From Cenarchaeum sp. (GTDB taxonomy: Archaea > Thermoproteota > Nitrososphaeria > Nitrososphaerales > Nitrosopumilaceae): a stretch of DNA of 64,000 nt. A model generated the notes under the pieces. It ran no database searches. It was not told the DNA's origin and saw nothing but the letters and a program-made list of their open reading frames with translations. The position numbers were made by a program, and so were the translations under genes. The stretch is taken from NCBI GenBank assembly GCA_965212015.1, contig OZ243037.1:960001-1024000 (forward strand). Reading direction: 5' to 3'. Below, piece by piece: positions 25,301-59,632 of the stretch (positions are counted from its first letter, which is position 1; every line of letters begins with the position of its first letter).

Positions 25301-25437
25301 AGGTTGGGGCACTTGTCCGCCGAATCCTCGACTCCGTCATTATCCAGGTCGGATTCTGCAAATGCCGTATATACCGGAATGCTCGAAATGGCAAACATTA
25401 TTAAAAATATGAAACTAGCGGTGTGTTTTGTATTCAA
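22309..25437 (-). CDS. Secreted thrombospondin type-3 repeat protein, about 26 repeats, paralogue of neighbour
   Basis: Signal peptide; same repeats; shared GCPSNFVPWYD and PEQSR..HD.DLDGIIND caps. Confidence 0.92.
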   Translation of the reverse strand: MNTKHTASFIFLIMFAISSIPVYTAFAESDLDNDGVEDSADKCPNLQEDNEGILDGCPSNFVPWYDEDFDGIEDQNDACPDIKENYNQFEDADGCPDTPPITGKTGADDTDSDGFADFADLCPTQPETFNGVYDTDGCPDDFAPSRDTDRDGVPNADDLCPLSAEIYNQLDDADGCPDSVSDSVFDDTDNDGIEDKFDSCIDKPEVYNGYFDGDGCPDTVESGARLFDSDGDGIVNKFDVCPDEPETHNQFADHDGCPDSLSFSAVNLGDADEDGVPNSVDSCPLMPERYNGYEDADGCPDIPPYVSDVDSDRDGILDSMDVCPDVAEVYNQLDDSDGCPDHVALGEQNPDSDGDGISDYADSCPNRPETFNDLLDSDGCPDYTTSYDADRDGISDESDSCMLEPETYNNYEDTDGCPDSIVAKTYDADGDGVADISDRCVLDPETFNGHLDSDGCPDEVPYADGDSDGVPDSEDACPAEREVWNAYKDTDGCPDTVSLADTDGDGVADSQDSCPLVPERFNSYEDTDGCPDIPPYETLIDSDQDGIMDSLDACPLLDESYNQFEDTDGCPDRVVDAKDTPDSDGDGISDYMDSCPNQPETFNDLLDRDGCPDRESTADADGDAIADEADSCPLYAETYNNYQDTDGCPDTVDTEFADADGDGIENASDECIVNAEVYNGYLDSDGCPDAVSQSDSDSDGVPDDADLCPTQPETWNRFLDDDGCPDGIVDSDADRDGIPDDLDQCVTDQERYNNYLDEDGCPDFLPYILDKDSDFDNIADSVDECILQPERYNMFQDEDGCPDILPPGNYDELNDSDGDGLSDLEDFCPNQSETFNGFLDSDGCPDDYAASADTDNDGIPNETDACPLEPEVHNQFEDTDGCPDSVETALDSDGDGIENTLDECPTRPETYNSVSDEDGCPDVTFLDGDADGIPDDMDVCPTVKETWNRYVDYDGCPDTVPAAPVHLDSDADGIRDGNDGCPAEPETWNKYEDADGCPDVIPEQSRYKHDSDLDGIINDLDLCPDIPEDYDGNADSDGCPDP

Positions 25438-42100: not shown

Positions 42101-45100
42101 CGCTTGAAAAGTCCAGTCCCTCCGGGACATTATCCGGAAGGGAGCCGGTGGCGGGAAAACTGCGGTCGGGGTCGGTGGGGGAGGACGGCATTGCATAGGG
42201 GGCATCGAGGATATACTCGTGTACGCGGTCGTTTTGGGTTCCAATTATAAACATGCGCTGGCCGTTATTTGAGAATTCCACCGCGGTGGGCGCAGTATCC
42301 GCAGAACCCACAAAGAACTCTGCGGTGAAATCATCAGACCTGCTCGATACGTCAAAGGCCGTACCGAGGTCATACTGGAGTATGCGATCATTTGCGCCGG
42401 ACTCTAGTACAAACAAGAGCGTGCCGTTACTGGAGAATGCCAGATCGGTGGGTATGGTATAGGTGCCGGAATGCGAGGTTGTGGGCGCATAGTCGATCAG
42501 TGGCGGAGTAAGTATCAGGTTGACAGAATAGTCGTTCGATGCCGTATTGCCGATGTTTATTGCGCTCTGGGCCGCACCTGCCGGAATTGATACGGTAATG
42601 ATGGCGTCGGTGGCCCCGCGAAGCACGTCAAAGTCAAACACGGTATTATCATCGGTTCTAAAGTTTGATACCACGTGAACGCCGGCGCTGCTCGATATTA
42701 TAATATCGGATGCCTCCAGTCCCGACACCGACTCGCTGAATGTGGCGTTAAACGCTGCAATGCCGTCGACTGTGGCATCCTCCTGGGTGGTGCTGCCGAT
42801 GATTACCGTGGGCGCGATGAGCTCGGGAAGGGAGAACCCAAAGACGTTATCAACAACTGTTCCGGAATTGCTAGAGCCGAGTGTAAACATGCGCTGGTTA
42901 TCAGCTGTTATGTGCAGGCCAACGAGGTTTCCGGTCTGGGGGTGAAAGGCAACAGAGTTTTCCATATACTCTACACCGGAGAGGATTGAGAACGGGGCGC
43001 CCAGCGCATACTCGTGGAATCTGGCGGCGAATCCTCCAATGACAAACATGGATGTGCCATCGGAGCGAAATGCCAGATCGTTTGGAAAAGTCAGGTTACG
43101 CGGCTCTGCATCGATCAGAACGACGGCGGCGCCGCTGGAGGATACATCAGAAAGGGAAAAGGGGACGCCCAGCGCAAACTCGTAGACGCTAATATCGGAA
43201 GTAGCGCCGCCAAGGACGAACAGCTTTGTGCCGTCAGATGAAAGGGCAAACCCGACTGTGGCCCCATCTATGCCGGTCAGCCTGTGCGAGTTTACCAGCG
43301 AGAGGGATTCCACATCATAGGGCGAATCCATGCTGTATTCATGGAGGTTGGGGGCTTCCAGCACAAACATGGTGCGTCCGTCGTTTGAGAATTCCGTATC
43401 CGACGGCACTGTAGTCCCCGGCAGTACGGCCACGGGGCCGCGCACAATGTCGCTGTTGGGGTTGCCCGTCGTGTTTGCAAAGACAAACGGCGTTCCGCTG
43501 GTGGAGTATGTGGTGATATCGCGATCATTGGCCTCTATTATGAACATGAGCGTGCCGTTCCTTGAAAAGTCCACGTTGCGCGGAACGTCACCTGCCGTCG
43601 ACCTCTCAAATGTCTGGTCAAATACGAGCGTGTTGTTCAGGGTAAGTGTCCTGACGTCATCCACTATGCGGAGTGTTACGGGTTCGACGTCCGCATTACT
43701 TGGACCGGTGGCAACGACGTTAAATTCAACGTTCCCGACGGCATCTGGCGTCCATGTGAACGCGCCGCCGGCCGTTATCGCGGCGGATGCCGGCGCGCCG
43801 TCGAGTGCAAAGCTTGCCGGCCGGCCCGATACCAGGCCGAACTGCAGCGAGATCGGCCCATCCACCACGTATTGGTGCGATATTACCGGCAGTATGATTA
43901 CGGGCGGCAGTCCGGCGGTAAATGTGGCCGTACGAATTTCGGATGCCGTATTGCTCTGTGGAGAGTCGTCCACATCCATGGCGATGCCCTCCGGAATGCT
44001 CACATTTATTGTGCCGTCCGTGCCGTTGCGCTGCACATCAAAGGCGAATGTGGCTGCCTGGCCGGTGGCGGGCGAAAAATTCGACGCCCTGTGGGTGCCG
44101 GCAGGCGCGGTGCTATCCACGGTAATCTCGTCTATGAAAAATTGCGACACGGGCTCGCTGAACTCGGCCATAAACCGTATGGTCTCCAGGTTGGTGGTCC
44201 CCTCGTGTTCCACATCGGTACTAGTTACGTTCACGGTGGGCCGGATGCCAAATGAAATCAGGTACGGGATGGCTGGCGCCACATTGGCGGTGCCTTGCAG
44301 ATCCATAAACGTACCGGCGGCAATGAATATGCTCAGGGTCTCCTCGGTGTCCCGGATGCCTATCTGAAAGCTGTATATGAGATCGGTTCTCCGGGTAAGG
44401 TTCTCCGGCACATAGCCCTCGCTGGAGCCGCCAAGGAAGGTAATGTCATCTAGTGTAAACGTGCTCTCCATTATGGGCTCGCTGAATGTGGCGTTAAAAT
44501 TGGCCACATCCAAGAGCGTTTCGCCGAGATCCGGCACGTCGGTGCTGGTGATTGTGACTGTGGGCGGGCCATCCGGCGCGGTAAAAGTGGCGGTATAAAC
44601 TTCGGATGCCGCATTGCCGTGTGGAAGGTGATCCACATCAATGGCGGCGCCCTCCGGAATGCTCACATTTATTGTGCCGCCCGCGTCGTTGCGCTGCACA
44701 TCAAAGGTGAATATGGTTGCCGGGCCGGTGGCGGGCAAAAGATTCGACGCCCTGTGGGTGCCGGCAGACGCGGTGCTATCCACGATAATCTCGCTTGCAA
44801 GAAACTGCGACACGGGCTCGCTGAACTCGGCCATAAACCGTATGGTCTCCAGGTTGGCGGTCCCCTCGTGTTCCACATCATCACTGGTTACGTTCACGGT
44901 GGGTATGCTGACAAATGTAAAGGAGTACGGGGCAGTTGACGCATCATTGGCGTTGCCTTGCAGATCCGTGAACGTATCGGCGAGAATGCGTATGGCCAAG
45001 GTAGCTTCGGTGTCTTCGCTGTCTATCTGAAAGCTGTATACGAAGTCGTTTACCCGGGCAACGTTCGTTGCCATATGGACTCCGGGGGGGCCGACGAAGG

Positions 45101-46358
45101 TAATGTCATCTTCTGTAAACGTGCTTTCGTCTATGCGCTCGTTGAATGTGGCGTTAAAATTGGCCACATCCGAGGTCGCATCGCCGAGATCCGGCACGAC
45201 GGTGCTGGAGATTGTGACTGTGGGCGGGGTGTTATCCACTTGGGAAAAAGCGGTGGTAAATGGAATTGCCGCAGAGTTGAAGTTATTCTGACCCACACTA
45301 CGCGCCCTGTCTACGGGAATCGACACGGTCAGATCACCGATGGAGGATCCAATACCGACGACAAACGTGTACCGGGAGGGGTTGACTTGCATAAAGCTCG
45401 ATACTTGGGGATCGCCGCCGTTTACGGTACCTGACAGTTCGATCCCCGTTGCGTTAAATCCCGTTACAGGCTCGTTGAATCGGACGTCAAATGTTATGGA
45501 TGATGCGGGCGTGAATGTGCCGTTTGCCAGAGGCGAACCGTCATTGGCCGTGATTGTCGGGATGGTGGGCAGCGTAAAGGCGGCGCGGAGCGGATACTGG
45601 AGGACGGTGTCGGTAGTCGAGGAGACGATATACATGGTCCTGCCGTCAACTGAAAAGTCTATTCCGCGGTAATTAGTAGATGGTGGGGTAAAAGTGTCAA
45701 CGGCTGCACCGAGACCGTCCAGGTTAAAGGGCGGATTCAGGTTGAACTGCTCAATCGCCCTCGCACCCATCACAAACAGCCTTGTGCCGTCAGTGGAGAT
45801 TGCCACGCCGAGAGCACCACCAAACGTGCCTGGATTAAAACTGCTGTCGGCTGCACCGGCGGAGGAAACATCAAAGGGCGTTGAGAGCCGGTATCCAGAA
45901 ATACTACCCCCTCCAATAAACACCCAATCGCCGTTAGCAGAGAATGTAGCACCTAGTCCGCCGCTGATGCAGCAGCCGACGTTTTCGAGTGGAGTGTATG
46001 AATTACTACCATCAATGCTGTACGGGGCAAGACTGTTTCGCCCGTTATTTAGAACATACAAGGTACTCCCGTCATTGGAGACTAGTACGTCCTGAAACTC
46101 GAATGCGTGAGAAGGGGGAAAGTTTCCGCCAGTCGTGCCGGGTACGGTGGCGCTAGCTATGTCAAAGGGGGTACTGAGCGAGAATGTAATGATACTATTG
46201 GTTCCTGAAACATACAATGTCATGCCGTCGTTGGACATGGTCAGCCCCGTGGGTATGCTTTCAGGAGGATTGACGCTGATGGATGTCTGGGCATAAGCCG
46301 AGACTGGGATCAAAACCAACAGTGGCAACAGAAAGGCTACCATCATGCTCTTTTGCAT
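39129..46358 (-). CDS. Giant secreted surface protein A (about 2409 aa): signal peptide, beta-propeller-like repeats, Ig-like and cadherin-like domains, shared C-terminal domain
   Basis: Start MQKSMMV matches paralogue; repeats like PTDLAFSSNGTLLFV...YDLGTAFDVSS and FSEPV.QF...TINVSIPEG. Confidence 0.9.
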   Translation of the reverse strand: MQKSMMVAFLLPLLVLIPVSAYAQTSISVNPPESIPTGLTMSNDGMTLYVSGTNSIITFSLSTPFDIASATVPGTTGGNFPPSHAFEFQDVLVSNDGSTLYVLNNGRNSLAPYSIDGSNSYTPLENVGCCISGGLGATFSANGDWVFIGGGSISGYRLSTPFDVSSAGAADSSFNPGTFGGALGVAISTDGTRLFVMGARAIEQFNLNPPFNLDGLGAAVDTFTPPSTNYRGIDFSVDGRTMYIVSSTTDTVLQYPLRAAFTLPTIPTITANDGSPLANGTFTPASSITFDVRFNEPVTGFNATGIELSGTVNGGDPQVSSFMQVNPSRYTFVVGIGSSIGDLTVSIPVDRARSVGQNNFNSAAIPFTTAFSQVDNTPPTVTISSTVVPDLGDATSDVANFNATFNERIDESTFTEDDITFVGPPGVHMATNVARVNDFVYSFQIDSEDTEATLAIRILADTFTDLQGNANDASTAPYSFTFVSIPTVNVTSDDVEHEGTANLETIRFMAEFSEPVSQFLASEIIVDSTASAGTHRASNLLPATGPATIFTFDVQRNDAGGTINVSIPEGAAIDVDHLPHGNAASEVYTATFTAPDGPPTVTITSTDVPDLGETLLDVANFNATFSEPIMESTFTLDDITFLGGSSEGYVPENLTRRTDLIYSFQIGIRDTEETLSIFIAAGTFMDLQGTANVAPAIPYLISFGIRPTVNVTSTDVEHEGTTNLETIRFMAEFSEPVSQFFIDEITVDSTAPAGTHRASNFSPATGQAATFAFDVQRNGTDGTINVSIPEGIAMDVDDSPQSNTASEIRTATFTAGLPPVIILPVISHQYVVDGPISLQFGLVSGRPASFALDGAPASAAITAGGAFTWTPDAVGNVEFNVVATGPSNADVEPVTLRIVDDVRTLTLNNTLVFDQTFERSTAGDVPRNVDFSRNGTLMFIIEANDRDITTYSTSGTPFVFANTTGNPNSDIVRGPVAVLPGTTVPSDTEFSNDGRTMFVLEAPNLHEYSMDSPYDVESLSLVNSHRLTGIDGATVGFALSSDGTKLFVLGGATSDISVYEFALGVPFSLSDVSSSGAAVVLIDAEPRNLTFPNDLAFRSDGTSMFVIGGFAARFHEYALGAPFSILSGVEYMENSVAFHPQTGNLVGLHITADNQRMFTLGSSNSGTVVDNVFGFSLPELIAPTVIIGSTTQEDATVDGIAAFNATFSESVSGLEASDIIISSSAGVHVVSNFRTDDNTVFDFDVLRGATDAIITVSIPAGAAQSAINIGNTASNDYSVNLILTPPLIDYAPTTSHSGTYTIPTDLAFSSNGTLLFVLESGANDRILQYDLGTAFDVSSRSDDFTAEFFVGSADTAPTAVEFSNNGQRMFIIGTQNDRVHEYILDAPYAMPSSPTDPDRSFPATGSLPDNVPEGLDFSSDGLHMYVVGAENDRIYGYTLGGPFFLTSISAPPVSSPLPDGRPTGSEITDDGSILYVLGGQAVNSFRNIYAYSLGTAHDVSDLTLLGARQPLTSAQVTGMEFGSDSRILYVTERSSNGILAFATNTALPELGDLNFGFTEDSDVSELAPVPGSDDDPGAVLEYSLSNHPGWLSIDSATGQLSGIVPQDNSPLFDSMDTPARCFEQGSVEFTVTVSDDGFDSDNTDDVSRDYTVSVFNNARSPNDLPSNVNNMDIPLARTATQLDLSLYTSDTDAEDTLTYSFAGLAGNAITPDSLAIDSDTGLATFTSTGNSGTATIDYLVCDGSHLSSLQVTTASSTQPSISFADITKRVLIGHNSVISAQEFFDSITIDAPNGEEFFFPGDQLPSPPGFPHHNPGSGNRENDLMGLYRVEGDLTGTDEAIPSRNFVGNQTWNFIAELRATSGSVTMNPGDLAIGGPRDGMAAQAGDVVARATNLYTLTTFAPTVGNFSAVYSPGDTVDIQFPITPDNVNYDLVLDEVAEEMLATLGLSHGNIINRNPSDLRLSGTIPLDLVPPTGATEDYTIEYTALLRPGVSTTEFLGTLYIRVSDVITLDATTADGFSIPASSLGAPDNATFTAVTYEPELTGAGDDGDGNALFDLMFVDVEGVRTAMLVSTADEDYACSDLADQMLTITTTTTGEDGSMPVTVTTIVFEPCSGGGDDDTQWRTKPTFGKSYTTGQKIVDCGYSMDNVCRDVTDYHVDYKRNTIETDSLHDFALTAYAQNGLRSFNIGFGMPGIGSPLNAAEAQINVNLIRDYSINSTYMIDSVEYSNENRVIGEDATFEISRVKCLPTDENNLCVRLNIDGVLFRETLYDEPFAINALDSKRRGTTHYMNEGLLVFGDSLNVPPTHELSERHSNQGDAVKLHLTRTDKLADVWTDQLGHQWTKNAFGTWSYVDAPPVDMSSACTDEDNRACDAFAQKRDAHIIQMEELRDSVYGRAYVTSHDGRQ
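39178..45230. repeat. Long direct repeat shared with 49220-54600 (offset about 10.04 kb), including an internal tandem duplication of an Ig-like pair (about 43920-45230)
   Basis: Near-identical blocks; shadow ORFs duplicate at offsets 10036-10042. Confidence 0.9.
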
Positions 46359-46392
46359 ATACAACCCCCCCCCCCAACTGCTTATAAAAGTA
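46359..46392 (-). promoter_or_regulatory. Leaderless-type promoter with G11 tract between TATA box and ATG
   Basis: Minus strand TTTTATAA-GCAGTT-G11-TTGTAT-ATG; C-run 46365-46375. Confidence 0.8.
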
Positions 46393-46408
46393 TAATCATC
46401 GGTTTTTT

Positions 46409-46468
46409 GTAACCGGTTAGGTTCAAGCGGGATATTTGGATCCGCAGGCACCGGACCTAACCGGTTAC
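46409..46468 (+). mobile_element. 60-bp MITE-like element, copy 4 (perfect TIRs)
   Basis: GTAACCGGTTAGGT...ACCTAACCGGTTAC perfect 14-bp inverted repeat; no clean TSD. Confidence 0.8.
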
Positions 46469-46521
46469 GAACCGGTTCTTGACTGCGATCATGCGGGATC
46501 AGGGTGAACATGGCGTCAGGA

Positions 46522-46788
46522 CTAGAACTTCCATTCTTCACACAGTCCGTTCCACAGGGGACGGAACACGTCCGGATCCTTTCCAATCTCCTGCGTGATG
46601 CGGTTTTTGAGCACGAATGAAAAGTTCTCCAGCGCATCAATGCCGCCGTCATTATACAGCTCTTCTCCAATCTCGGAGATCCGGGCCTTTTTTGCCTCGG
46701 CTTCCCCGGATTCCGGGTTTTGGAGGCAGAACGTCATCAGGTCGATTAGCTCCTCCTCCAGCATAAAGTCCATAAGGAATTGCGGCAT
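46522..46788 (-). CDS. Hypothetical protein
   Basis: Protein-like helical ORF, host codon usage; start may be 46773. Confidence 0.75.
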   Translation of the reverse strand: MPQFLMDFMLEEELIDLMTFCLQNPESGEAEAKKARISEIGEELYNDGGIDALENFSFVLKNRITQEIGKDPDVFRPLWNGLCEEWKF

Positions 46789-46945
46789 TTTCCGATATTT
46801 ACCGGTATCGAAGGACGCCTGTCCGGGAGTTTACACAGCAGGCCGAATACTAGCCGGACTGGCAGATAAACTAGCAGGTTCCCCGCTTTTGGATGCGCGC
46901 TTTAAGACGGGTTGGCCGGGCTTGTTAGCTTGTCTATTCGATCCA

Positions 46946-47260
46946 GGCCAGAACGTCCGGGATGCGTTCTCAGGGGCAGATGTCTTTCTCAACATGAACT
47001 TGGAGCTGCGCGAATCAATCTACAAGTTTGTCGAGCTGTTGTTTGAAAATACGCTCAAGACGCCCCACATAAGAGTCCGGAATGATGCATGCCTTTACAG
47101 TCTCGATGGCATCCTCCCCGTTATCAAGACAAGCGGGAGTCTCGATTCTCACAAAAACTGGTGATTTGATATCCGCTGGAATCAATGAGGTCCCAAAGGC
47201 TGGCAGTGGCCATTATCTGGCCGGGGACAAAAATGATGCGGCTTGTTCCATATTACATGC
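46946..47260 (+). pseudogene. Fragment of anti-phage dCTP/dCMP deaminase (AvcD-like)
   Basis: GQNVRDAF..ADVFL...FVELLF....TP, frameshift, then MMHAF.....SPLSRQAG..I....GDLIS.G.NEVPKAG; HAE/PCxxC part missing. Confidence 0.7.
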
Positions 47261-47265
47261 CGCAT

Positions 47266-47526
47266 CTACAGCCCGATGAGGTCGTCATCAGACGCCCTTG
47301 TGCAGTCTGTCCCCACCGGCCTGAGCTCAGTAAAGGTGATCTTTCCCTCCGGAATCCTTGCCATGCCCTGCAGTGCGCCGAGTTTTTCACGCACGGCCCT
47401 TTTATGCCTGCCGCAAGTCACCCCCACCATGTACTCTCCGTCGCCGGAGGCCACAGAGATGACAAACTCCGGCGGGTTGACGCACAGCTTGCCGCCTTTT
47501 TTTACGGAACACCTGTCGGGAAGCAT
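47266..47526 (-). CDS. Small Cys-containing hypothetical protein, possible Zn binding
   Basis: MLPDRC...CVNPP...VTCGRH...GTDC. Confidence 0.7.
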   Translation of the reverse strand: MLPDRCSVKKGGKLCVNPPEFVISVASGDGEYMVGVTCGRHKRAVREKLGALQGMARIPEGKITFTELRPVGTDCTRASDDDLIGL

Positions 47527-47557
47527 GAGTGACACCGGAATGATGGCGATATTAATC

Positions 47558-48853
47558 TTAGTCGAACACGCCGGCATGGCGCCAAATGGATTCGCGCGAG
47601 CAATCCCCGTAATCCAAAAAACCCCCCTCCTGCAGCTTTTTTACTACAAACGCAGAATATGCAGGCGCGCCGGTGGCGCCAGGCGAGTTGTAGTTTATTA
47701 TGCTAAGGGAACCCTCGCCTTTTAGCTCCAGCACGTCTGAGAGAAACCCGCCCTCCGGCGTGATTATCTGCGAACGTATTCCCGCAGTGCCCCTGCCGCT
47801 AAAAAATTCCGGCCTCACCCGGGGGATGAATTTTTTGAGGCGCCCGACCATCGCCGTCTTTGAGACCGAGCTGAGCCATTCCTTGCACACCATGGACAAA
47901 AATTCCGGATCAAGGAGCAGTTTTTTTGCATTTCCCGTCACCAGGCCCCCTAGCTTGCATAGCGACTCGCCAATGTCACCCACGTAACCCTCGTATATCT
48001 CCGAGCCCAGAACGGGAACGGCGTTTGGGCCGATCTCGACTGTGCCGTCGGCCTTTTTTATCCAGTGCGGATCCAAAAAAGGATACCCCTCAAACTCTGC
48101 GACGGTGTATGCCGTGGTCCCGACCAGTCCGGCATGCTGCGCGTCTGCGACCCAGTACTCGCCCCGGAAATGAAGATCAGAGTACTGTGTGGCCGTCCCC
48201 AAAAGATGCGCAACATCCAAAGAGTTCCCCCCCGCGCAGTTGATCACAAAGTCGGCCGATATTTCTGGGCCGCCTTCAAGTAGCATGGTGTGGCCGTCCG
48301 GGTTTTTTTGTATGTCCGTTACGTTTTTTTGCATCAAAAAGTCGGTCCCGTTTTTTTGCGACTCGTTTTTTGTCGCGCGGCACAGCGCCCCGAAATCCGT
48401 CGACGCCTCTCGCGTGCAGTGTATGGCCGAGTGGCACCGGATGTTTGGCTCCATTTTTGAGACCTGGGCCCCGTCTAGCAGGCGCATGTCGTCTGGCGGA
48501 ATCCCGTTTTCATCCCCCCATTTCATGTACCGCTCGAGGCTCTTGTGTTGCCCCTCGTCTAGTGCCAGCTCCAAGACCCCGGTCCTCGCCCACGGTATTT
48601 TTTCCCTTTTTGCAAGATCCTCCCACATTCCGCGGGATAACAGGGCCGATCTTGCCAGCATTCCCCTTGTCTTTGGATTCAGATAAAACGGAGAGTGCAC
48701 CACGCCGGTATTGCGCCCGCTGGCATGCATTGCGACGCCGGATTCCTTTTCTATTACAGCCGTCCTTGCACCACAAAGCGACGAGATCCAGTACGATATG
48801 CTGGTGCCAAGGATTCCTCCCCCGATGATTGCAATGTCGTATCGCTCCAACAC
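47558..48853 (-). CDS. FAD-dependent oxidoreductase, L-2-hydroxyglutarate oxidase-like
   Basis: IIGGGILG, HASGRNTGVVH, FRGEYW, GPNA, GIRSQ, SPGAT. Confidence 0.9.
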   Translation of the reverse strand: MLERYDIAIIGGGILGTSISYWISSLCGARTAVIEKESGVAMHASGRNTGVVHSPFYLNPKTRGMLARSALLSRGMWEDLAKREKIPWARTGVLELALDEGQHKSLERYMKWGDENGIPPDDMRLLDGAQVSKMEPNIRCHSAIHCTREASTDFGALCRATKNESQKNGTDFLMQKNVTDIQKNPDGHTMLLEGGPEISADFVINCAGGNSLDVAHLLGTATQYSDLHFRGEYWVADAQHAGLVGTTAYTVAEFEGYPFLDPHWIKKADGTVEIGPNAVPVLGSEIYEGYVGDIGESLCKLGGLVTGNAKKLLLDPEFLSMVCKEWLSSVSKTAMVGRLKKFIPRVRPEFFSGRGTAGIRSQIITPEGGFLSDVLELKGEGSLSIINYNSPGATGAPAYSAFVVKKLQEGGFLDYGDCSRESIWRHAGVFD

Positions 48854-49092
48854 ACGTGGATCGTCGTGTTCACATTAATTGATTTTGAATCACGGCACGC
48901 AGGCGGCGCCGGGAGGCAGACTGGCATTCCCGGGGGCCGTCCCCGTCACGGCCGGGATCCATCCCGGCTGCTCAAAAGGCCTTCATTTTGGGGCCGGTCT
49001 TGTTACAGATGGGTCCGTACCAGCTATATCATAATCAGGGCATCGTTGCCTGCATTTCACGCAAGACGCGGATTTGTTCGGCGTATGTTCAA

Positions 49093-52000
49093 CTAGGGAT
49101 CCTGCATGCCGTGAAGAACCAAAAAGGCCTCGCGTGAGTCGCCGTCGGCATTATGGATGCTGACTGTCGTTTCCAGGTCGTCAAAGGCCGGAACGGTATA
49201 GATGCCGCCGTAATAGAAATCACGCAGCTCCTCCATCTGAATAATGTGCGCGTCGCGCTTTTGGGCAAAGGCGTCGCACGCACGATTGTCCTCGTCGGTA
49301 CACGCACTCGACATGTCGACTGGCGGCGCATCCACGTACGACCACGTGCCAAACGCGTTCTTTGTCCACTGGTGTCCCAGCTGGTCGGTCCACACGTCTG
49401 CAAGCTTGTCGGTCCGAGTCAGGTGCAGCTTTACTGCGTCGCCCTGGTTTGAGTGCCTCTCGCTGAGCTCGTGCGTGGGGGGCACGTTTAGCGAGTCGCC
49501 ATACACCAGCAGTCCCTCGTTCATATAGTGGGTGGTGCCGCGCCTCTTTGAGTCCAGCGCGTTTATTGCAAACGGCTCGTCGTACAGCGTCTCGCGGAAC
49601 AGTACGCCATCTATGTTCAGCCGCACGCACAGGTTATTTTCGTCTGTAGGCAGGCATTTTACGCGCGATATCTCAAATGTGGCGTCCTCGCCTATCACGC
49701 GATTCTCGTTTGAATATTCCACGGAATCTATCATGTACGTGGAGTTTATGGAATAGTCGCGTATCAGGTTTACGTTAATCTGCGCCTCTGCAGCATTCAG
49801 GGGCGAGCCTATTCCGGGCATGCCAAAGCCGATGTTAAACGAGCGCAGGCCGTTTTGTGCGTACGCCGTTAGCGCAAAGTCGTGAAGCGAGTCAGTCTCT
49901 ATGGTATTGCGTTTGTAATCGACGTGATAGTCAGTTACGTCGCGGCAGACATTGTCCATGGAATAGCCGCAGTCCACTATTTTTTGGCCAGTCGTGTACG
50001 ACTTGCCAAACGTCGGCTTTGTCCTCCACTGCGTGTCGTCATCGCCGCCTCCCGAGCACGGTTCAAAGACAATGGTGGTAACCGTGACGGCCGTGCTGCC
50101 GTCCTCGCCGGTGGTAGTGGTAGTTATGGTAAGCATCTGATCTGCCAGATCACTGCAGACATAGTCCTCATCGGCAGTCGAGGCAAGCGACACCGTTTGT
50201 ACACCCTCCACATCAACAACCATCAATTCGAATAGATCGTTACCTTCACCGTCATCACCGGCGCCGGTAAGTTCCGGCGCGTACGTCGCTCCAGTAAAGG
50301 TGGCATTATCCGGGGCACCCAGACTGCTTGCCGGGATGCTAAATGTCTCAAGTGCGGCCACATCCAGCGTGATTACATCAGAGACCCGGATGTTGAGCGT
50401 GCCCGGAAATGTAATGGTGGATACGCCGGGGCGCAGAAGAGCAGTATATTCAATGGTATAGTCTACAGTCGCACCGGTGGACGGCACCAGGTCAAGCGGG
50501 ATGGTGCCGGACAGCCTCAGGTCGGCAGGATTCCGGTTTATGATATTTCCGTGGCTCAGCCCGAGGGTCGCCAACATCTCTTCGGCCTCTGCGTCCAATA
50601 CGAGGTCATAATTGACATTATCGGGCGTTATTGGAAACGATATGTCCACAGTGTCGCCGGGCGAATATACTGCTGAAAAGTTGCCGACAGTCGGGGCAAA
50701 CGTCGTAAGGGTATAGAGGTTCGTGGCCCTTTCAACTACATCGTCTACCACTGCGTCACCGGTCTCCACACCGTTGGCATCTATTGCCTGGTCGTTCGGA
50801 TTATTCGTGACGGATTCTGCCGTGGCGCGCAACTCTACTATAAAGTTCCATGTTTGGTTGCCTATAAAGTTCCTAGAGGCAAGTGTCTCATCACCATCTA
50901 GTGTACCTTGAACAGGGTAAAAGCCCCTCTGAGCGCTTTCACGGGCGCCGTTACCGGGATTATGATGGGGGAATCCGGGCGGTGAGGGCAGTTGGAACTC
51001 TGGGAAAAAGAGCGCTTCCCCGTTTGGATTATCAAAAGTTACACTTTCAAGAAACTCTTGTGCCGAGATAAACGAATTATGACCTACCAGCACCCTCTGT
51101 GTAATGTCGGCAAACAATATGGAGGGCTGGGTGGCCGATGCAGTCGTCACTTGCAAACTCGAGAGGTGCGAGCCGTCACACACCAGATAATCGATGGTTG
51201 CCGTACCGGTGTTGCCAGTCGACGTAAAGGTCGCAATGCCCGTATCGGAATCAATCGCAAGGGAGTCCGGAGTGATGGCGTTGCCTGCCAGGCCCGCAAA
51301 GGAGTACGTCAGGGTGTCCTCGGCATCGGTATCGCTGGTATACAGGGAGAGATCCAGCTGTGTGGCAGTTCTGGCAAGCGGAATGTCCATGTTGTTCACG
51401 TTTGAGGGAAGGTCGTTGGGCGATCTTGCATTGTTAAATACACTAACGGTATAGTCGCGCGAGACATCATCGGTATTATCGGCATCAAAGCCGTCATCAG
51501 ATACCGTCACGGTAAACTCTACGCTGCCCTGTGTGAAGCACCTTGCGGGGGTATCCATGCTATCAAAAAGGGGCGAGTTGTCCTGCGGGACAATACCGGA
51601 GAGCTGTCCCGTGGCGGAATCTATGCTCAGCCAGCCCGGATGGTTCGAGAGGCTGTATTCCAGTACTGCGCCCGGGTCGTCATCGGATCCCGGAACCGGG
51701 GCCAATTCAGAGACGTCACTGTCCTCCGTAAAGCCAAAGTTCAGGTCCCCAAGCTCGGGAAGCGCCGTGTTTACCGCAAACGCCAGGATGCCATTGCCTG
51801 TGCGTTCTGTAACGTATAGGATCCTAGAGTCCGAACCGAACTCCATCTCTGTTAACTGTACGCCGGCTAGCGGCCGCGTCTCTAAAAGGGTCAGATCACT
51901 CACGTCATGGGCGGTGCCAAGCGAATATACAAAGAGATTGCGAAAGCCGTTCCTGCCCTGCTCGTCCAAAACGTACAGTATGGAGCCGTCATCGGTGATT

Positions 52001-55000
52001 TCAGATCCGGTCGGGCGGCCAACGGTCAGGTCAGAGAATACCGGGGGTTTCGTGATGCTTCCCAGGAGAAACGGACTGCCTAGCTCGTACCCGAATATGC
52101 GGTCGTTTTGGGCGCCTGTCATGTACATGTACCGGCCGTCACTTGAAAAGTCCAGTCCTTCCGGGAAACTATCCGGAAGCCTGCCGGTGGCGGGAAAACT
52201 GCGGTCGGGGTCGGTGGGGGAGGACGGCATTGCATAGGGGGCATCGAGGATATACTCGTGTATGCGGTCGTTTTGGGTTCCAATTATAAACATGCGCTGG
52301 CCGTTATTTGAGAATTCCACCCCGTTGGGCGAATTATCTGCAGAACCCACAAAGAACTCTGCGGTGAAATCATCGGACCTGCTCGATACGTCAAAGGCCG
52401 TACCGAGGTCATACTGGAGTATGCGATCATTCGTACCGGTCTCGACTACAAACAAGAGCGTGCCGTTACTGGAAAATGCCAGATCGGTGGGCAGGGAGTA
52501 GGTGCCGGAATGCGAGGTTGTGGGCGCATAGTCAATCGATGGCGGAGTAAGTATCAGGTTGACAGAATAGTCGTTCGATGCCGTATTGCCGACGTTTATT
52601 GCGTTCTGGGCCGCACCTGCCGGAATCGATACGGTAATGATGGCGTCGGTGGCCCCGCGAAGCACGTCAAAGTCAAACACGGTATTATCATCGGTTCTAA
52701 AGTTTGATACCACGTGAACGCCCGTGCTGCTCGATATTATAATATCGGATGCCTCCAGTCCCGACACCGACTCGCTGAATGTGGCGTTAAACGCTGCAAT
52801 GCCGTCGACTGTGGCATCCTCCGGGGTGGCGCTGTTGATTGTTACCGTGGGTGTGATGATCTCGGGAAGGGAGAACCCAAAGACGTTATCAACAGCTCCG
52901 GTAGCGCTAGAGCCGAGTGTAAACATGTGCTGGTTGTCAGCTGTTATACGCAGGCCATTGACGTTTCCGGTCTGGGGGTGAAAGGAAACAGAGTTGTCCA
53001 CATACGTTACACCGGAGAGGATTGAGAACGGGGCGCCCAGCGCATACTCGTGGAATCTGCCGGCGAATCCTCCAATGACAAACATGGATGTGCCATCGGA
53101 GCGAAATGCCAGATCGTTCGGAAAAGTCAGGTTACGCGGCTCTGCATCGATCAGATCGACGGCGGCGCCGCTGGAGGATACGTCAGAAAGGGAAAAGGGG
53201 ACGCCCAGCGCAAACTCATAGACGCTAATATCGGAAGTAGCGCCGCCAAGGACGAACAGCTTTGTGCCGTCAGATGAAAGGGTAAACCCGACTATGCCCC
53301 CATCTATGCCGGTCAGCCTGTGCGAGTTTACCAGCGAGAGGGATTCCACATCATAGGGCGAATCCATGCTGTATTCATGGAGGGATCTGGGGGTTCCCAG
53401 CACAAACATGGTGCGTCCGTCGTTTGAGAATTCCGCATCCGACGGCTCTGTAGTCCCCGGCAGTACGGCCACGGGGCCGCGCACAATGTCGCTGTTGGGG
53501 TTGCCCGTCGTGTTTGCAAAGACAAACGGCGTTCCGCTGGTAGAGTATGTGGTGATATCGCGATCATTGGCCTCCATTATGAACATGAGCGTGCCGTTCC
53601 TTGAAAAGTCCACGTTGCGCGGAGTGTCACCTGCCGTCGACCTCTCAAAGGTCTGGTCAAATACGAGCGTGTTGTTCAGGGTAAGTGTCCTGACGTCATC
53701 CACTATGCGGAGTGTTACGGGTTCGACGTCCGTATTACTTGGACCTGTGGCAACGACGTTAAATTCAACGTTCCCGACGGTATCTGGCGTCCATGTGAAC
53801 GCGCCGCCGGGCGTTATCGCGGCGGATGCCGGCGCGCCGTCGAGTGCAAGGGTTGCCGACCGGCCCGATACCAGGCCGAACTGCAGCGAGATCGGCCCAT
53901 CCACCACGTATTGGTGCGATATTACCGGCAGTATGATTACGGGCGGCAGTCCGGCGGCAAATGTGGCCGTACGAACTTCGGATGCCGCATTGCCGTGTGG
54001 AGTGCGATCCACATCAACGGCGGCGCCCTCCGGAATGCTCACATTTATTGTGCCGTCCGTGCCGTTGCGCTGCACATCAAAGGTGAATGTGTCTGCCTGG
54101 CCGGTGGCGGGCAAAAGATTCGACGCCTTGTGGGTGCCGGCAGGTGCGGTGCTAACCACGGTAATCTCGTCTACTGAAAATTGCGTCACGGGCTCGCTGA
54201 ACTCGGCCATAAACCGTATGGTCTCCAGGTTGGCGGTCCCCTCGTGTTCCACATCATCACTGGTTATGGTCACGGTGGGCGTGGTGACAAATGTAAAGGA
54301 GTACGGGGCAGTTGACTCCTCATTGAGGTTGCCTTGCAGATCCGTGAACGCACCGGCGTCAATGCGTATGATCAAGTTAGCTTCGATGTCTTCGCTGTCT
54401 ATCTGAAAGCTGTATACGAGGTTGTTTACCCGGGCAACGTTCGTTGCCATGTGGACTCCGGGGGGGCCGACGAAGGTAATGTCATCTTCTGTAAACGTGC
54501 TTGCGACTATGCGCTCGCTGAACTCGGCCCTAAAAGTGGCCACATCCAAGGTCGTCTCGCCGCGATCCTCCACGTCGGTGCTGGTGATTGTGACTGTGGG
54601 CGGGGTCTCATCAAGGACCAGCTGGACAACAGGCGCATCGTCAAACTCGAGCCTGTATGACGTAAACACCGTCACATCAACAGGGTCGTCTGCAAACCTT
54701 ACATCAAACGTTATTACTTCAAATCCGATAACGTCATTCGTGCCGGGGGCTATTTGGTAATGGGTGGCATTGAGCCTGGTTGCAGTGATGTGAGAGTTAT
54801 CCCGGGCGCCACTACCGTCCTCGGGCAGCTGAACGTTACTGATCGTAACATGCTCCACAAAGGCGGCATCCCCCCTGGCGACCAGATCTGGAAGATTTAG
54901 GAGGAACGGCTCAAATCCGGGTGTCAAAAAGAGCCGGCCTACCGGGGATTGTGGAAATCCCAGCGGTACGGTTCCGGCAGGATCCGACTCGAATCGGAAT

Positions 55001-57609
55001 AACAGTTGTTCGCTTTGGGGCAGATTTACCCCGTCATCCAGGGCAAAGGTAAACCTGGTCTGGCAGTTACACCCGGGACCGGGGGGCGTTACGATGAGAC
55101 GATCGCCCACTATATTGGCGGATAACGCCTGGTTGCTCTGGCCCGTTATGGTAACATCAAGGCGGGGCCTGCTGTTGTCATTATCCACAAACAGGTCATT
55201 CAGTGGGATGGCAAACCGGTCATTGACGGCGTTGCGCGGTCCAAACTTCAGGCCACTATGCAGTTCCCCGGGTGCCGCGTCGGTGTTACGGGTGACAATT
55301 GTGTAATTGACTATCAGGCTGTCGTGGACCAGCGGAATGATATCTCCCACAACGACCCCCGTGGACGGGATTATTGTCGGACCGTGCAGGACGGCAGTGA
55401 ACGTTACAGAATCCGTGGGGGTTGTAAAGTCGGATGTCGGATTATACGATATGGACCCAGAGCCGTTGGATGGGAATACTCTAATCTGGACTGTGGTCCC
55501 GTTCGAGGTCAGCTCGGGAACAAGGGTGGCGGGATCGGTCTGGTTGATTCGAATCTCCCCCGTTGCATCCGCATTGTCGGCAGTTATTATAATGTGGTTA
55601 AACGCCACCCTCGGGTCTATGGCAAAGTCGTCCCAGTTCAGGACGACATCCTCAGCCAAAAGGCCATGGTTTACATTAATTGAGGAGTCCAGGAATATGC
55701 CGGACTCGGTCGTCTCTATGTCCCGCACTGTAACCGTTATAGTCTCACAGGTGATAGCGTTTGGCACGCCCGTGGCCTGGCTTTCGGCGCACAGCTTGGC
55801 GGCCACTATGCCTGATGATACCGGGTCTATGGACAGTATATCTCCTGTAATGCTCAAATCTACGATTCCGGGATCCAGGTTGGTCACAGTGTATATGATG
55901 TCATCGCCCTCCGGATCCATAAAAAATTCGTTCAACATTACCGTCATGTCCGCATCCGAGGAATCAACTATGTATCCTGCCGTCAGGTTGGATATGGGGG
56001 CCGCATCGGTCTTGTTTACAGTTATATCAAATATGCCAGAGAACATGCTTCCGTCCTGTAAGGCAAACGTATAGGTTATCGGGATGGGATCCGACTGTAT
56101 GCCGGTGGTCACAAATGTGTCGGATATCGTGTGTCTTGTTCTTTCGTCCGTTTCTTCGTCTATCGTCTGGCTGACTATCTGAAATCCATTTATGAATATT
56201 ACACCTGTGGTGTCGTTAAACTGCAGAGGGTCGGCACCACTCGCTACAAGTTCTTGTATCGACTGTAGATCCAGGTTTTCTAGGTCTACCACCCTAGAAA
56301 AATTAATTACACTTAGCGGTATTCCCAGCTCGCCGGTTACCACCGGAATAGTGCCCCTGTCGATGGGGGATTCGGTATGGGAGAGGATATACAATAGCAG
56401 GGAATTCAGCGTCTGCCCCTCGTTTATCGTCTGATCCGGGATGCTCCTGATCACAACGGGCGGGAGGGTAACTGCCTGGGTAAAAGTGGCGGTAAACGGA
56501 ACGGACGCCGAACTGCGGTGACTATTCGCACCCATTGCCGCGCCTTCGGGAATCGATACGGTCACAGTGCCAGCGATGGATCCAACACCGACGACAAACG
56601 TGTACTTGGAGGGGTCGGTAGGGTTTGCCGTAAATTCCGATATTATTAGATTGCCGTCGGTTGCGGTACCCGTCAACACAATATCCTCTTCAACAAATCC
56701 CGTCACATCCTCGCTGAATTGGACGTTAAATGTTATGGCTGGCTCGGCCGTGGATGCGCCGTTTGCCAGATTGCCCCCGGCATCGGCGGTAATTCTCATC
56801 GCGGTGGGCAGGGTAAAGGGCTCGGGAAGCGCATACTGGAGCATGCGATCACCGCCGGAGGTATCCAAAAGATACATGGTCCTACCGTCGGTTGAAAAGT
56901 CCATGCCGCGTGCATTAACAAATGGTATGAGGGAGGTAAAAGTATCAACGGGTGTTGAGCTGGTACCGTTCAGGTGAAATGGCGTACTTAGGGCATACTG
57001 GCTAACCGTAGTACCAAAAAAAGTAAACAGCCTTGTGCCGTCATTGGAGATTGACACGCCCTGCCCCATATGGCCCGTGTCAAACGTGCCGTGAAAGCTA
57101 ACGTCGTCAGTTATATCAAAGGGGTTTTCGAGCCGGTATGAAACGACACCATTATCGCGTCCAAGAAATATCCAGTTACCGCCCCTAGAGATTCCACCAT
57201 CAAAATTCCCGCCATCACAGCAGTCTGGGGGATCAATTAAGAGGGTAAGCTCACCAGTCATAGGATCTGCCGGTAACGTGATAACGCGGGATTGAGATCC
57301 GCTGCTGACTAGAAATACTGTGGCACCGTTATTGTGAACCATTACGCCCTGTGCATTATTCGTAGGAGGGTCAAAACGCTGCATTATGCCCGCATCGACG
57401 ATGCTGGTTATATCAAAGGGGGTAGTGAGCGTGAATCTGGTAAGCTCGCTAGGTTCTGCGACATACACTCTCAGTCCGTCGTTGGATATTGTCATTCCCA
57501 CGGGAAGTCCTGCGGGCGCTATACTGACGGGAAACTGTGCGTGAGCCGAAATGGGGATTAAAACCAACAATGGCAATAGGAAGGCTGCTACCAGCATGCT
57601 CTTTTGCAT
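49093..57609 (-). CDS. Giant secreted surface protein B (2838 aa), paralogue of A with a unique insert of about 600 aa
   Basis: Signal peptide, propeller-like, Ig-like and cadherin-like repeats, shared C-terminus. Confidence 0.92.
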   Translation of the reverse strand: MQKSMLVAAFLLPLLVLIPISAHAQFPVSIAPAGLPVGMTISNDGLRVYVAEPSELTRFTLTTPFDITSIVDAGIMQRFDPPTNNAQGVMVHNNGATVFLVSSGSQSRVITLPADPMTGELTLLIDPPDCCDGGNFDGGISRGGNWIFLGRDNGVVSYRLENPFDITDDVSFHGTFDTGHMGQGVSISNDGTRLFTFFGTTVSQYALSTPFHLNGTSSTPVDTFTSLIPFVNARGMDFSTDGRTMYLLDTSGGDRMLQYALPEPFTLPTAMRITADAGGNLANGASTAEPAITFNVQFSEDVTGFVEEDIVLTGTATDGNLIISEFTANPTDPSKYTFVVGVGSIAGTVTVSIPEGAAMGANSHRSSASVPFTATFTQAVTLPPVVIRSIPDQTINEGQTLNSLLLYILSHTESPIDRGTIPVVTGELGIPLSVINFSRVVDLENLDLQSIQELVASGADPLQFNDTTGVIFINGFQIVSQTIDEETDERTRHTISDTFVTTGIQSDPIPITYTFALQDGSMFSGIFDITVNKTDAAPISNLTAGYIVDSSDADMTVMLNEFFMDPEGDDIIYTVTNLDPGIVDLSITGDILSIDPVSSGIVAAKLCAESQATGVPNAITCETITVTVRDIETTESGIFLDSSINVNHGLLAEDVVLNWDDFAIDPRVAFNHIIITADNADATGEIRINQTDPATLVPELTSNGTTVQIRVFPSNGSGSISYNPTSDFTTPTDSVTFTAVLHGPTIIPSTGVVVGDIIPLVHDSLIVNYTIVTRNTDAAPGELHSGLKFGPRNAVNDRFAIPLNDLFVDNDNSRPRLDVTITGQSNQALSANIVGDRLIVTPPGPGCNCQTRFTFALDDGVNLPQSEQLLFRFESDPAGTVPLGFPQSPVGRLFLTPGFEPFLLNLPDLVARGDAAFVEHVTISNVQLPEDGSGARDNSHITATRLNATHYQIAPGTNDVIGFEVITFDVRFADDPVDVTVFTSYRLEFDDAPVVQLVLDETPPTVTITSTDVEDRGETTLDVATFRAEFSERIVASTFTEDDITFVGPPGVHMATNVARVNNLVYSFQIDSEDIEANLIIRIDAGAFTDLQGNLNEESTAPYSFTFVTTPTVTITSDDVEHEGTANLETIRFMAEFSEPVTQFSVDEITVVSTAPAGTHKASNLLPATGQADTFTFDVQRNGTDGTINVSIPEGAAVDVDRTPHGNAASEVRTATFAAGLPPVIILPVISHQYVVDGPISLQFGLVSGRSATLALDGAPASAAITPGGAFTWTPDTVGNVEFNVVATGPSNTDVEPVTLRIVDDVRTLTLNNTLVFDQTFERSTAGDTPRNVDFSRNGTLMFIMEANDRDITTYSTSGTPFVFANTTGNPNSDIVRGPVAVLPGTTEPSDAEFSNDGRTMFVLGTPRSLHEYSMDSPYDVESLSLVNSHRLTGIDGGIVGFTLSSDGTKLFVLGGATSDISVYEFALGVPFSLSDVSSSGAAVDLIDAEPRNLTFPNDLAFRSDGTSMFVIGGFAGRFHEYALGAPFSILSGVTYVDNSVSFHPQTGNVNGLRITADNQHMFTLGSSATGAVDNVFGFSLPEIITPTVTINSATPEDATVDGIAAFNATFSESVSGLEASDIIISSSTGVHVVSNFRTDDNTVFDFDVLRGATDAIITVSIPAGAAQNAINVGNTASNDYSVNLILTPPSIDYAPTTSHSGTYSLPTDLAFSSNGTLLFVVETGTNDRILQYDLGTAFDVSSRSDDFTAEFFVGSADNSPNGVEFSNNGQRMFIIGTQNDRIHEYILDAPYAMPSSPTDPDRSFPATGRLPDSFPEGLDFSSDGRYMYMTGAQNDRIFGYELGSPFLLGSITKPPVFSDLTVGRPTGSEITDDGSILYVLDEQGRNGFRNLFVYSLGTAHDVSDLTLLETRPLAGVQLTEMEFGSDSRILYVTERTGNGILAFAVNTALPELGDLNFGFTEDSDVSELAPVPGSDDDPGAVLEYSLSNHPGWLSIDSATGQLSGIVPQDNSPLFDSMDTPARCFTQGSVEFTVTVSDDGFDADNTDDVSRDYTVSVFNNARSPNDLPSNVNNMDIPLARTATQLDLSLYTSDTDAEDTLTYSFAGLAGNAITPDSLAIDSDTGIATFTSTGNTGTATIDYLVCDGSHLSSLQVTTASATQPSILFADITQRVLVGHNSFISAQEFLESVTFDNPNGEALFFPEFQLPSPPGFPHHNPGNGARESAQRGFYPVQGTLDGDETLASRNFIGNQTWNFIVELRATAESVTNNPNDQAIDANGVETGDAVVDDVVERATNLYTLTTFAPTVGNFSAVYSPGDTVDISFPITPDNVNYDLVLDAEAEEMLATLGLSHGNIINRNPADLRLSGTIPLDLVPSTGATVDYTIEYTALLRPGVSTITFPGTLNIRVSDVITLDVAALETFSIPASSLGAPDNATFTGATYAPELTGAGDDGEGNDLFELMVVDVEGVQTVSLASTADEDYVCSDLADQMLTITTTTTGEDGSTAVTVTTIVFEPCSGGGDDDTQWRTKPTFGKSYTTGQKIVDCGYSMDNVCRDVTDYHVDYKRNTIETDSLHDFALTAYAQNGLRSFNIGFGMPGIGSPLNAAEAQINVNLIRDYSINSTYMIDSVEYSNENRVIGEDATFEISRVKCLPTDENNLCVRLNIDGVLFRETLYDEPFAINALDSKRRGTTHYMNEGLLVYGDSLNVPPTHELSERHSNQGDAVKLHLTRTDKLADVWTDQLGHQWTKNAFGTWSYVDAPPVDMSSACTDEDNRACDAFAQKRDAHIIQMEELRDFYYGGIYTVPAFDDLETTVSIHNADGDSREAFLVLHGMQDP

Positions 57610-57644
57610 ATACCACCCCCCCCCCCCAATTGCTTATAAAAGTA
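57610..57644 (-). promoter_or_regulatory. Leaderless-type promoter with G12 tract between TATA box and ATG
   Basis: Minus strand TTTTATAA-GCAATT-G12-TGGTAT-ATG; C-run 57616-57627. Confidence 0.8.
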
Positions 57645-58753: not shown

Positions 58754-59632
58754 ATGCGTCCGGATCAAATAATCTGCGGGGACAATGCGGAGGTATTGTC
58801 CGGGATGGACGGCGATACGGTGGATCTCACCATAACGTCGCCCCCGTACAGAAACGCCATAGACTACAACCTGCACGCACAGCACGGCCACGATCCGGAA
58901 AAGAACTATCGCGGCAAGCTCACCATTACGGTTCCCCAATACATCGCAGACATGGGCCGCATCTTCGGCCAGGTGCACAGGGTGACCAAGCCGGGGGGCT
59001 ATTGCTGTATAGTGATAGGAAACGAGATAAACCACGGGACGCTCGAGCCCCTGCCCGCGCTGCTCGCAGCAGAGCTGTACAAGCAGGGGTGGTTCCTGCA
59101 CGAGGAGATAGTCTGGCACAAGGTGACCGGCGGGGCAAACAGGGCCGGAAGCTTTGTCCAGCGGCCGTATCCCACATATTTCAGGGCAAACATAATGCAC
59201 GAGACAATCCTGGTGATGAGAAAGGGTGAAAACCGCCTGAGAAAGACGCAGTGCGCGTTTGCAGAGATCAACCAGGATGTGACGTGGAAGGAGATTGTAA
59301 ACTCTGTATGGCATATCGCCCCGGTGCCCCCCAGATTCCTGAACCATCCGTGCCCGTATCCAGAAGAGATACCGTACAGGCTGATAAACCTCTACTCAAA
59401 CGAGGGCGACCTGGTGCTAGACCCGTTCAACGGGGCCGGCCAGACCACAAAGGCCGCCAGATACCTGCAAAGGAGGTTTTTGGGAATCGACATACAGGAG
59501 AGCTATGTGAGATACGCAAGGGAGCGCCTCGGCGAGGAGCCGCACATCAGGGACGAGTCGCTCACGCTAGAGTTTGAGCGGCAGGGCGGATCCATTCCAA
59601 AGTGGAAGAAAATCCCCACAAAAAGGGTCTAG
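58754..59632 (+). CDS. Beta-class N4-cytosine/N6-adenine DNA methyltransferase
   Basis: TSPPY motif IV before HPCPYP and VLDPFNGAGQT motif I. Confidence 0.92.
   Translation: MRPDQIICGDNAEVLSGMDGDTVDLTITSPPYRNAIDYNLHAQHGHDPEKNYRGKLTITVPQYIADMGRIFGQVHRVTKPGGYCCIVIGNEINHGTLEPLPALLAAELYKQGWFLHEEIVWHKVTGGANRAGSFVQRPYPTYFRANIMHETILVMRKGENRLRKTQCAFAEINQDVTWKEIVNSVWHIAPVPPRFLNHPCPYPEEIPYRLINLYSNEGDLVLDPFNGAGQTTKAARYLQRRFLGIDIQESYVRYARERLGEEPHIRDESLTLEFERQGGSIPKWKKIPTKRV

Follow-up and report, generated by a model that had tools for sequence, protein, structure and literature searches.

Long G/C homopolymers at the 5' ends of giant secreted-protein genes in an ammonia-oxidising archaeon: candidate contingency loci with archaeal promoters

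Host-adapted bacteria are the textbook case of phase variation through slippery repeats. In particular, porA and opc of Neisseria meningitidis carry poly-G or poly-C between the -35 and -10 boxes, hif of Haemophilus influenzae carries (TA)n, and nspA reportedly has a poly-A promoter. Here, we describe two poly-G tracts in a window of 64,000 nucleotides (nt) from Cenarchaeum sp. (contig OZ243037.1, positions 960,001 to 1,024,000), each of which separates the TATA box from the ATG of a gene for a giant secreted protein (genes A and B). As in porA, opc and hif, a pure homopolymer is placed between core promoter elements of a surface-protein gene and forms part of a multi-locus repertoire, and unit changes alter the spacing, so that graded expression would be expected. 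In contrast to those loci, the elements here are the archaeal TATA box with its B recognition element (BRE) and a leaderless initiator/AUG rather than sigma-70 hexamers, and the switching is a prediction. Because the flanking elements are TATA/BRE and a leaderless AUG, the spacing would affect both the choice of start site and the 5'-terminal start codon. With an archaeal TATA box and a leaderless ATG on either side of the tracts, these loci are analogous to the class of sigma-70 -35/-10 spacer loci but are not members of it.

Other tracts in the same genome resemble the bacterial frameshift contingency loci and phasomes in the sense of Moxon and Bayliss, as poly-C lies within the first dozen codons and both in-frame and out-of-frame copies are present. 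Surface and host-interaction functions are enriched, as they are in bacterial phasomes; unlike in those systems, the host is an archaeal ammonia oxidiser and not a pathogen. A further parallel is the poly-G system tuned by a small RNA (sRNA), in which a variable poly-G beside the start of a surface or sensory gene also gives gradual tuning. In that system the tract is transcribed and acts by sRNA pairing, whereas the tract here lies upstream of the predicted transcription start.

According to the accessible part of a 2025 review, genomes with multi-locus phase variation appear restricted to pathogens, and archaeal phylogenies are named there as future work on the distribution of phase variation (PMC11868660). 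Orsi et al. 2010, as far as its available text goes, dealt with coding homopolymers only, in 18 archaea (PMC2831843), and in the available portion of a comparative paper on sponge Thaumarchaeota the terms homopolymer and phase variation are absent (PMC7848895). A 2025 preprint, in the accessible part, mentions studies of contingency loci in archaea, and its references 13 and 14 are general reviews. Full-text literature searches, limited to main texts, found no report of poly-G tracts in thaumarchaeal genomes and none of promoter homopolymer phase variation in archaea. Contingency loci built on simple sequence repeats (SSRs) are themselves known; ones acting through an archaeal TATA/leaderless-AUG promoter, as the sequence suggests here, would be new.

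Two poly-G tracts upstream of giant secreted-protein genes

Gene A (39129..46358, minus strand) encodes a secreted giant of 2409 aa with the signal peptide MQKSMMVAFLLPLLVLIPVSAYA and lactonase/SGL-type beta-propeller repeats. Gene B (49093..57609, minus strand) encodes a secreted giant of 2838 aa with the signal peptide MQKSMLVAAFLLPLLVLIPISAHA, SGL/lactonase repeats and Big_12. The SGL/lactonase beta-propeller and Big_12 matches of the two genes are weak, and both proteins start with a typical Sec-type signal peptide (MQKSM..LLPLLVLIP.SA.A/Q). The initial annotation had called them giant surface genes, and huge secreted proteins with signal peptides are indeed what they encode.

Reading along the minus strand, the 5' region of gene A has the order TTTTATAA-GCAGTT-G11-TTGTAT-ATG, with the TATA box TTTTATAA at 46382..46389, the tract (G11 on the coding strand) at 46365..46375 and the ATG at 46358; counted from the first T of TTTATA, the A of the ATG follows at 30 nt. 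The corresponding order in gene B, on the same strand, is TTTTATAA-GCAATT-G12-TGGTAT-ATG, with the TATA box at 57634..57641, the tract (G12 on the coding strand) at 57616..57627, the ATG at 57609 and a distance of 31 nt from the first T of TTTATA. Both promoters had been described in this way from the letters alone, and the description was correct in every detail, including the tract lengths, the flanks, the difference of one unit and the 30/31 nt distances. Each tract belongs to a promoter and signal-peptide module that extends from about -35 to +75 on the minus strand. We delimited this module, which ten paralogs in the genome share, at 46284..46393 in gene A and at 57535..57644 in gene B from an alignment of the ten paralog 5' regions and from mosaic identity profiles.

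The tracts of genes A and B are the sole G/C runs of at least 9 in the window, which supports the claim that they are its longest. They gave 7 overlapping matches to such runs compared with 0.78 expected, and a count of 7 was reached in none of 100 shuffles. Tract A (C11) was reproduced without a gap by an Illumina-type contig of run X1; thus, tract A is not a long-read artefact. As tracts recur at 12 loci and one of them was confirmed by this independent contig, we rejected sequencing artefact as an explanation. An upstream in-frame TTG that would render tract A coding (open reading frame (ORF) 39129..46670) was also rejected, since a comparable extension is missing from gene B and the signal peptide starts with the ATG.

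The genome from which the window was taken is a single contig of 1,764,220 bp with 51% G+C. The presence of archaeal 16S rRNA and archaeal AmoA agrees with the archaeal host proposed earlier. For a housekeeping protein, the closest named relatives come from Thaumarchaeota/Nitrosopumilaceae MAGs (62-65% identity), and the genome is that of an ammonia-oxidising archaeon of the Nitrosopumilaceae type.

Genome-wide tract set and promoter geometry

The length distribution of G/C runs in the whole genome was bimodal, with 451 runs of 6, 84 of 7, five of 8, none of 9 and ten of 10-13, while A/T runs showed a smooth decay with no second mode. All ten G/C runs of at least 10 were found at the 5' ends of large secreted-protein genes. 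Together with two C8 runs in paralogs, they make up 12 tracts, all of which stand at the 5' ends of signal-peptide frames of at least 900 codons; eight lie between TATA and ATG, and four lie inside ORFs at codons 8-12. All 12 proteins carry SGL/Big_12, FG-GAP/HYR or subtilase/Ig-like domains. The genome has 57 open frames with 900 codons or more; 12 of them have a tract at the 5' end, and other large signal-peptide genes are without one. Two further large ORFs lie within the window on the minus strand, namely a 923-aa ORF with a signal-peptide-like N-terminus (19442-22213) and a 1042-aa ORF (22309-25437; 1029 aa from its first ATG). Both have Asp-rich N-terminal motifs (DIDGDN; DLDNDGVEDSADKCPN) and no G/C tract at the start; hence, not all large secreted-type genes have a tract.

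Seven of the long runs share one module of TATA, six nucleotides, G10-13, six or seven nucleotides and ATG, close to the arrangement for which the initial annotation had suggested a genome scan. The module of these seven long runs reads TTTTATAAGCA(A/G)T(C/T)-G(10,11,11,11,11,12,13)-(ACGGTAT/TGGTAT/TTGTAT)-ATG. The seven corresponding paralogs, among them A and B, encode proteins of 1971-3861 aa with near-identical signal peptides. Another three paralogs share this module, but their tracts are interrupted (GGGGGGTTGGGG, GGGGGGATGGGA and GGGGTGGG) and appear to be locked versions. The eighth promoter tract, a G12, is flanked by TCTAAAATA and by the ATG of a 5168-aa Big_12/SWM/SGL protein, the promoter of which differs from the paralog module.

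These features are those expected of SSR contingency loci. The tract lengths lie far beyond what composition predicts, as evident from both the window shuffles and the genome run lengths; the 8 + 4 tracts are placed in the core promoter spacer or in the 5' part of an ORF; and the repertoire is multi-locus and biased towards surface and secreted proteins. We therefore consider it probable, with moderate confidence, that the twelve tracts are slipped-strand contingency loci that vary giant secreted adhesin-like proteins stochastically. On this reading, the tracts would be hypermutable and reversible and would affect expression.

To place the tracts within the promoter, we determined the promoter geometry of the genome. 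TATA-like hexamers upstream of the first ATG of 1173 long ORFs peaked at 28-31 nt (43, 78, 63 and 44, compared with a background of approximately 5). In a set of 200 other promoters, from which the poly-G promoters were left out, the BRE at -35..-33 is A-rich, TATA occupies -30..-24, and position -1 is a pyrimidine in 64%; no G run in their spacers exceeds 6, a length that 2 of the 200 reach. Judged from this geometry, leaderless transcription is the predicted rule in this genome, with the start predicted at the A of the ATG. In the accessible part of a study covering Thaumarchaeota, 11 of 11 fall into leaderless group D, with the promoter box approximately 26 nt from the start (PMC6028130). 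For Haloferax, the available text of another study gives approximately 80% of leaderless mRNAs as starting exactly on the start codon and 317 with 1-5 extra nt, and 78% of TATA boxes as lying within one position of the modal distance (PMC4983044).

The distance from TTTATA to ATG was 30, 30, 30, 31, 31, 31 and 32 nt in the seven pure-tract paralogs and 31, 30 and 28 nt in the three interrupted ones. These distances place the tract at positions -7 to about -18 in a promoter of canonical leaderless geometry. In addition to TTTATA starting 30-32 nt before the ATG, the module has ATAC upstream and T at -1, features consistent with a leaderless promoter. A 3' flank of 7 nt accompanies G10-11 and one of 6 nt accompanies G11-13, and the total spacer length stays within 3 nt. 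The TATA box thus stands at the canonical leaderless distance of the genome, which places the tract within the TATA-to-start spacer and is in line with the initial proposal that the ATG lies near the expected transcription start.

Frame states, mosaic paralogs and recurrence

The four in-ORF tracts are located in three FG-GAP/HYR paralogs with poly-C near the start (L184, L187 and L188; genome positions 228402-231467, 222450-225300 and 104266-107100) and in a 1761-aa subtilase with Peptidase_S8 and Ig-like surface domains (L185; genome positions 1137421-1142800; promoter CCATAAATAGG). One is in frame and three are out of frame. In particular, the C10 in codons 9-12 of the 1021-aa FG-GAP/HYR protein is in frame, and the two C8 paralogs of this protein are frameshifted, with a stop directly after the tract. 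The C11 of the subtilase (codons 9-12) leaves the leaderless ATG out of frame, and C10 or C13 would restore a complete signal peptide, MPKTAFRSLPPPSNIHIVLLIG... In the public gene calls, the two C8 copies are 910 and 892 aa from downstream starts and the subtilase is 1761 aa. These three genes are probably OFF-phase alleles that were called with shortened starts, a point that bears on annotation.

For these in-ORF tracts, transcriptional or translational slippage on the C-run could instead rescue the frame as programmed recoding, with the apparently OFF copies constitutively low and not switched genetically. Slippage is known to occur on runs of 8-11 identical bases, and A7-A11 runs gave 10-63% frameshifting, including archaeal genes tested in E. 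coli, in the accessible text of one report (PMC3711429). One paralog carries the tract in frame and two carry it out of frame, as switching at the DNA level predicts, and recoding does not apply to the promoter tracts; we regard it as very improbable.

Alignment of the ten paralogs revealed a near-invariant block from about -35 to +75, which comprises the core promoter and the signal peptide, and the sequences upstream of this block were unrelated except in pairs. Pairs of giant genes are alike either upstream (94-99% identity, as far as about +9 or -47) or within the coding region (95-99%, starting near +26). The identity breakpoints between the giant paralogs fall at the conserved promoter/signal-peptide module, a pattern that suggests recombination or gene conversion through the module in this family. 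A mosaic giant-gene family with breakpoints at such a module resembles variable surface-gene families. From -590 to +9, gene B shares 94-99% identity with the paralog at genome position 92329, but the tracts are G12 and G11, respectively, which is an indirect sign of mutability. At 57616, a single C is missing from one X1 contig (depth 555 of 7736). We rejected this 1-nt deletion as evidence of length variation because the paralog at genome position 92312, with identical flanks, has G11. No indel was listed at tract A in contigs of two runs from one study, and contigs of this kind cannot show minority lengths.

The mosaic structure also admits the view that the tracts are by-products, that is, homopolymers that emerge and are kept where members of a mosaic surface-gene family recombine, in a genome lacking MutS, and that have little or no adaptive effect on expression. 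The paralog identity breakpoints right at the module agree with this view, and MutS_V was not found in the 99.7%-complete single-contig genome. The lack of a MutS_V match also counts in favour of mutable tracts and thereby of the contingency-locus reading. NucS_C gave one weak, partial match at 1566235-1566435 of the genome, and repair of the NucS type corrects base mismatches and is not known to act on slippage loops. Without selection, however, long runs would be expected in gene bodies, at 3' ends and in other intergenic DNA, yet all ten are at the 5' ends of secreted-protein genes, and the in-ORF runs occur only within the first 12 codons. An origin as mere by-products therefore appears improbable.

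To understand whether similar tracts occur elsewhere, we compared the window's genome with related genomes. The exact module was not found in other sequences by an N-terminal protein query of genome contigs. The pattern CTTTTATAAGCARTYGGGG gave 8 matches in genome contigs and 7 in metagenome contigs, all of which were chance matches in unrelated bacteria. Any protein match was present in only 4 of the 61 related genomes, including the window's own, and the others showed at most 37% identity. G10 was present in 22 of these 61 genomes and absent from 39; the very high counts in G002-G004 and G035 were not used as support, because their sequence is very GC-rich.

In the same-genus genome G001, we found 17 G/C runs of at least 10. 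One has the order GATTATAAGCAGGCTCAC-G11-C-ATG (that is, gattataagcaggctcac-G11-c-ATG), with 28 nt from TATA to ATG, and precedes a signal-peptide protein. A second, TTTAATATA-C13-N13-ATG, stands before a giant that is homologous to the window's family. Three further signal-peptide giants are preceded by G11 or G12 at 3-28 nt, and an epimerase-like gene by G12 at 12 nt. In G019, which belongs to another genus, TTTTTATCCCCAAC-G11-TT-ATG precedes a signal-peptide gene. This independent recurrence speaks for the contingency-locus reading. Two other runs in G001 lie upstream of large signal-peptide ORFs, a C17 at 81 nt (L070) and a G13 at 147 nt (L066); they are both longer and farther from the ORF than the tracts in the window's genome.

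Proposed mechanism and its weighing

We propose that Gs gained or lost during replication would alter the TATA-to-ATG distance at the eight promoters, and that the start of RNA polymerase would thereby shift relative to the AUG. What would change is the spacing of TBP/TFB from the initiator, which in this case doubles as the start codon. A shorter tract would thus remove the 5'-terminal AUG, and a longer one would add a short leader; the G/C-rich block that lies upstream of the melted region would be altered too. If about four or more units were lost, initiation would be expected past the A of the AUG, and the next AUG (codon 5 or 6) would yield a signal peptide without the Lys-containing N-region. 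The outcome would be a graded volume control over several units rather than a one-base on/off switch. At the four in-ORF loci (three FG-GAP/HYR and one subtilase), the tracts would act as a classical frameshift switch.

The initial annotation had read the two promoters as candidates for phase variation through a ruler-type switch, in which contraction would turn the gene off and expansion would add a leader or alter melting. The general idea is in keeping with the results, as the architecture at eight promoters and the four frameshift-type tracts, three of them out of frame, fit contingency loci. A strict one-unit ruler is doubtful, since the spacings of the ten paralogs (28-32 nt) stay within the 27-34 nt that TTTATA-to-ATG distances cover at the other promoters of this genome. 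Because the genome tolerates 27-34 nt, one unit probably shifts the expression level and does not abolish expression. The promoter tracts are probably a rheostat for TATA-to-start spacing, not a one-base ruler.

Several observations speak against the contingency-locus reading itself. The agreement of the ten spacings with the range of ordinary promoters is one of them, and none of the promoter-type copies can be shown to be OFF; the promoter may tolerate a change of one G. In Haloferax, 317 leaderless transcripts have 1-5 extra nt (PMC4983044, accessible part). Seven of the ten long tracts belong to paralogs, so that the independent origins in the genome number about four and not ten, and the interrupted paralogs imply that the promoter needs no pure tract. 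Variation in tract length within or between populations was not shown by the assembled contigs of one study. Additionally, a second assembly has the same 1021-aa in-frame FG-GAP/HYR form (P0016), and this locus was therefore not seen to differ between assemblies. The subtilase orthologue of a related assembly (P0008, 1774 aa) has a different N-terminus, and its tract state is unreadable.

A fixed cis-regulatory element is a rival explanation. In that case the G-run would be a conserved binding site or a structural promoter element, such as a G/C clamp that makes these promoters hard to melt until an activator acts; its differences in length would be neutral, and duplication and gene conversion would have passed it on together with the promoter module. 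The near-invariance of the -35 to +75 module in ten paralogs, the position of every spacing inside the permissive window and the undemonstrated heterogeneity of tract length in contigs are consistent with such an element. It leaves unexplained the unrelated in-ORF tracts with broken frames (FG-GAP/HYR and subtilase), the tract in the different promoter of the 5168-aa gene and the occurrence, in G001 and G019, of non-homologous tracts ahead of signal-peptide genes. Moreover, three paralogs tolerate interruptions, and the gap at run length 9 indicates a length-dependent process. A fixed element thus seems unlikely, although less so than either recoding or by-products.

If the contingency-locus reading is extended, the genome may hold a first archaeal phasome of a dozen hypermutable tracts, eight of them acting via the TATA-to-AUG distance by a mechanism without a bacterial counterpart, which would have arisen independently in G001 and G019. 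We put this forward tentatively, as somewhat less than an even prospect. In such a phasome, one slippage event would change both the choice of transcription start and translatability. If the tracts do switch, archaea with a eukaryote-like transcription machinery would have converged on contingency loci, and the TATA-to-start ruler of archaeal initiation would be open to study with natural length variants. Thaumarchaeal populations would also be expected to be phenotypically heterogeneous in their giant surface proteins, which would bear on interactions with hosts, phages or particles.

Two further observations concern the surroundings of these loci. Just upstream of the promoter region of gene B, an N6/N4 DNA methylase gene (PF01555) is located at 58754-59632 of the window (plus strand), followed by a 626-aa ORF without a Pfam match at 59714-61594 (plus strand); the two may form a restriction-modification pair. 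Elsewhere in the genome, a (GTCT)10 repeat at 1692653-1692692 lies in AT-rich intergenic DNA approximately 160 nt upstream of a 604-aa minus-strand ORF. At the thresholds used (at least 6 copies for units of 2-3 nt, 5 for 4 nt and 4 for 5-8 nt), it is the sole SSR of the genome with a 2-8 nt unit, and it is possibly a further contingency locus.

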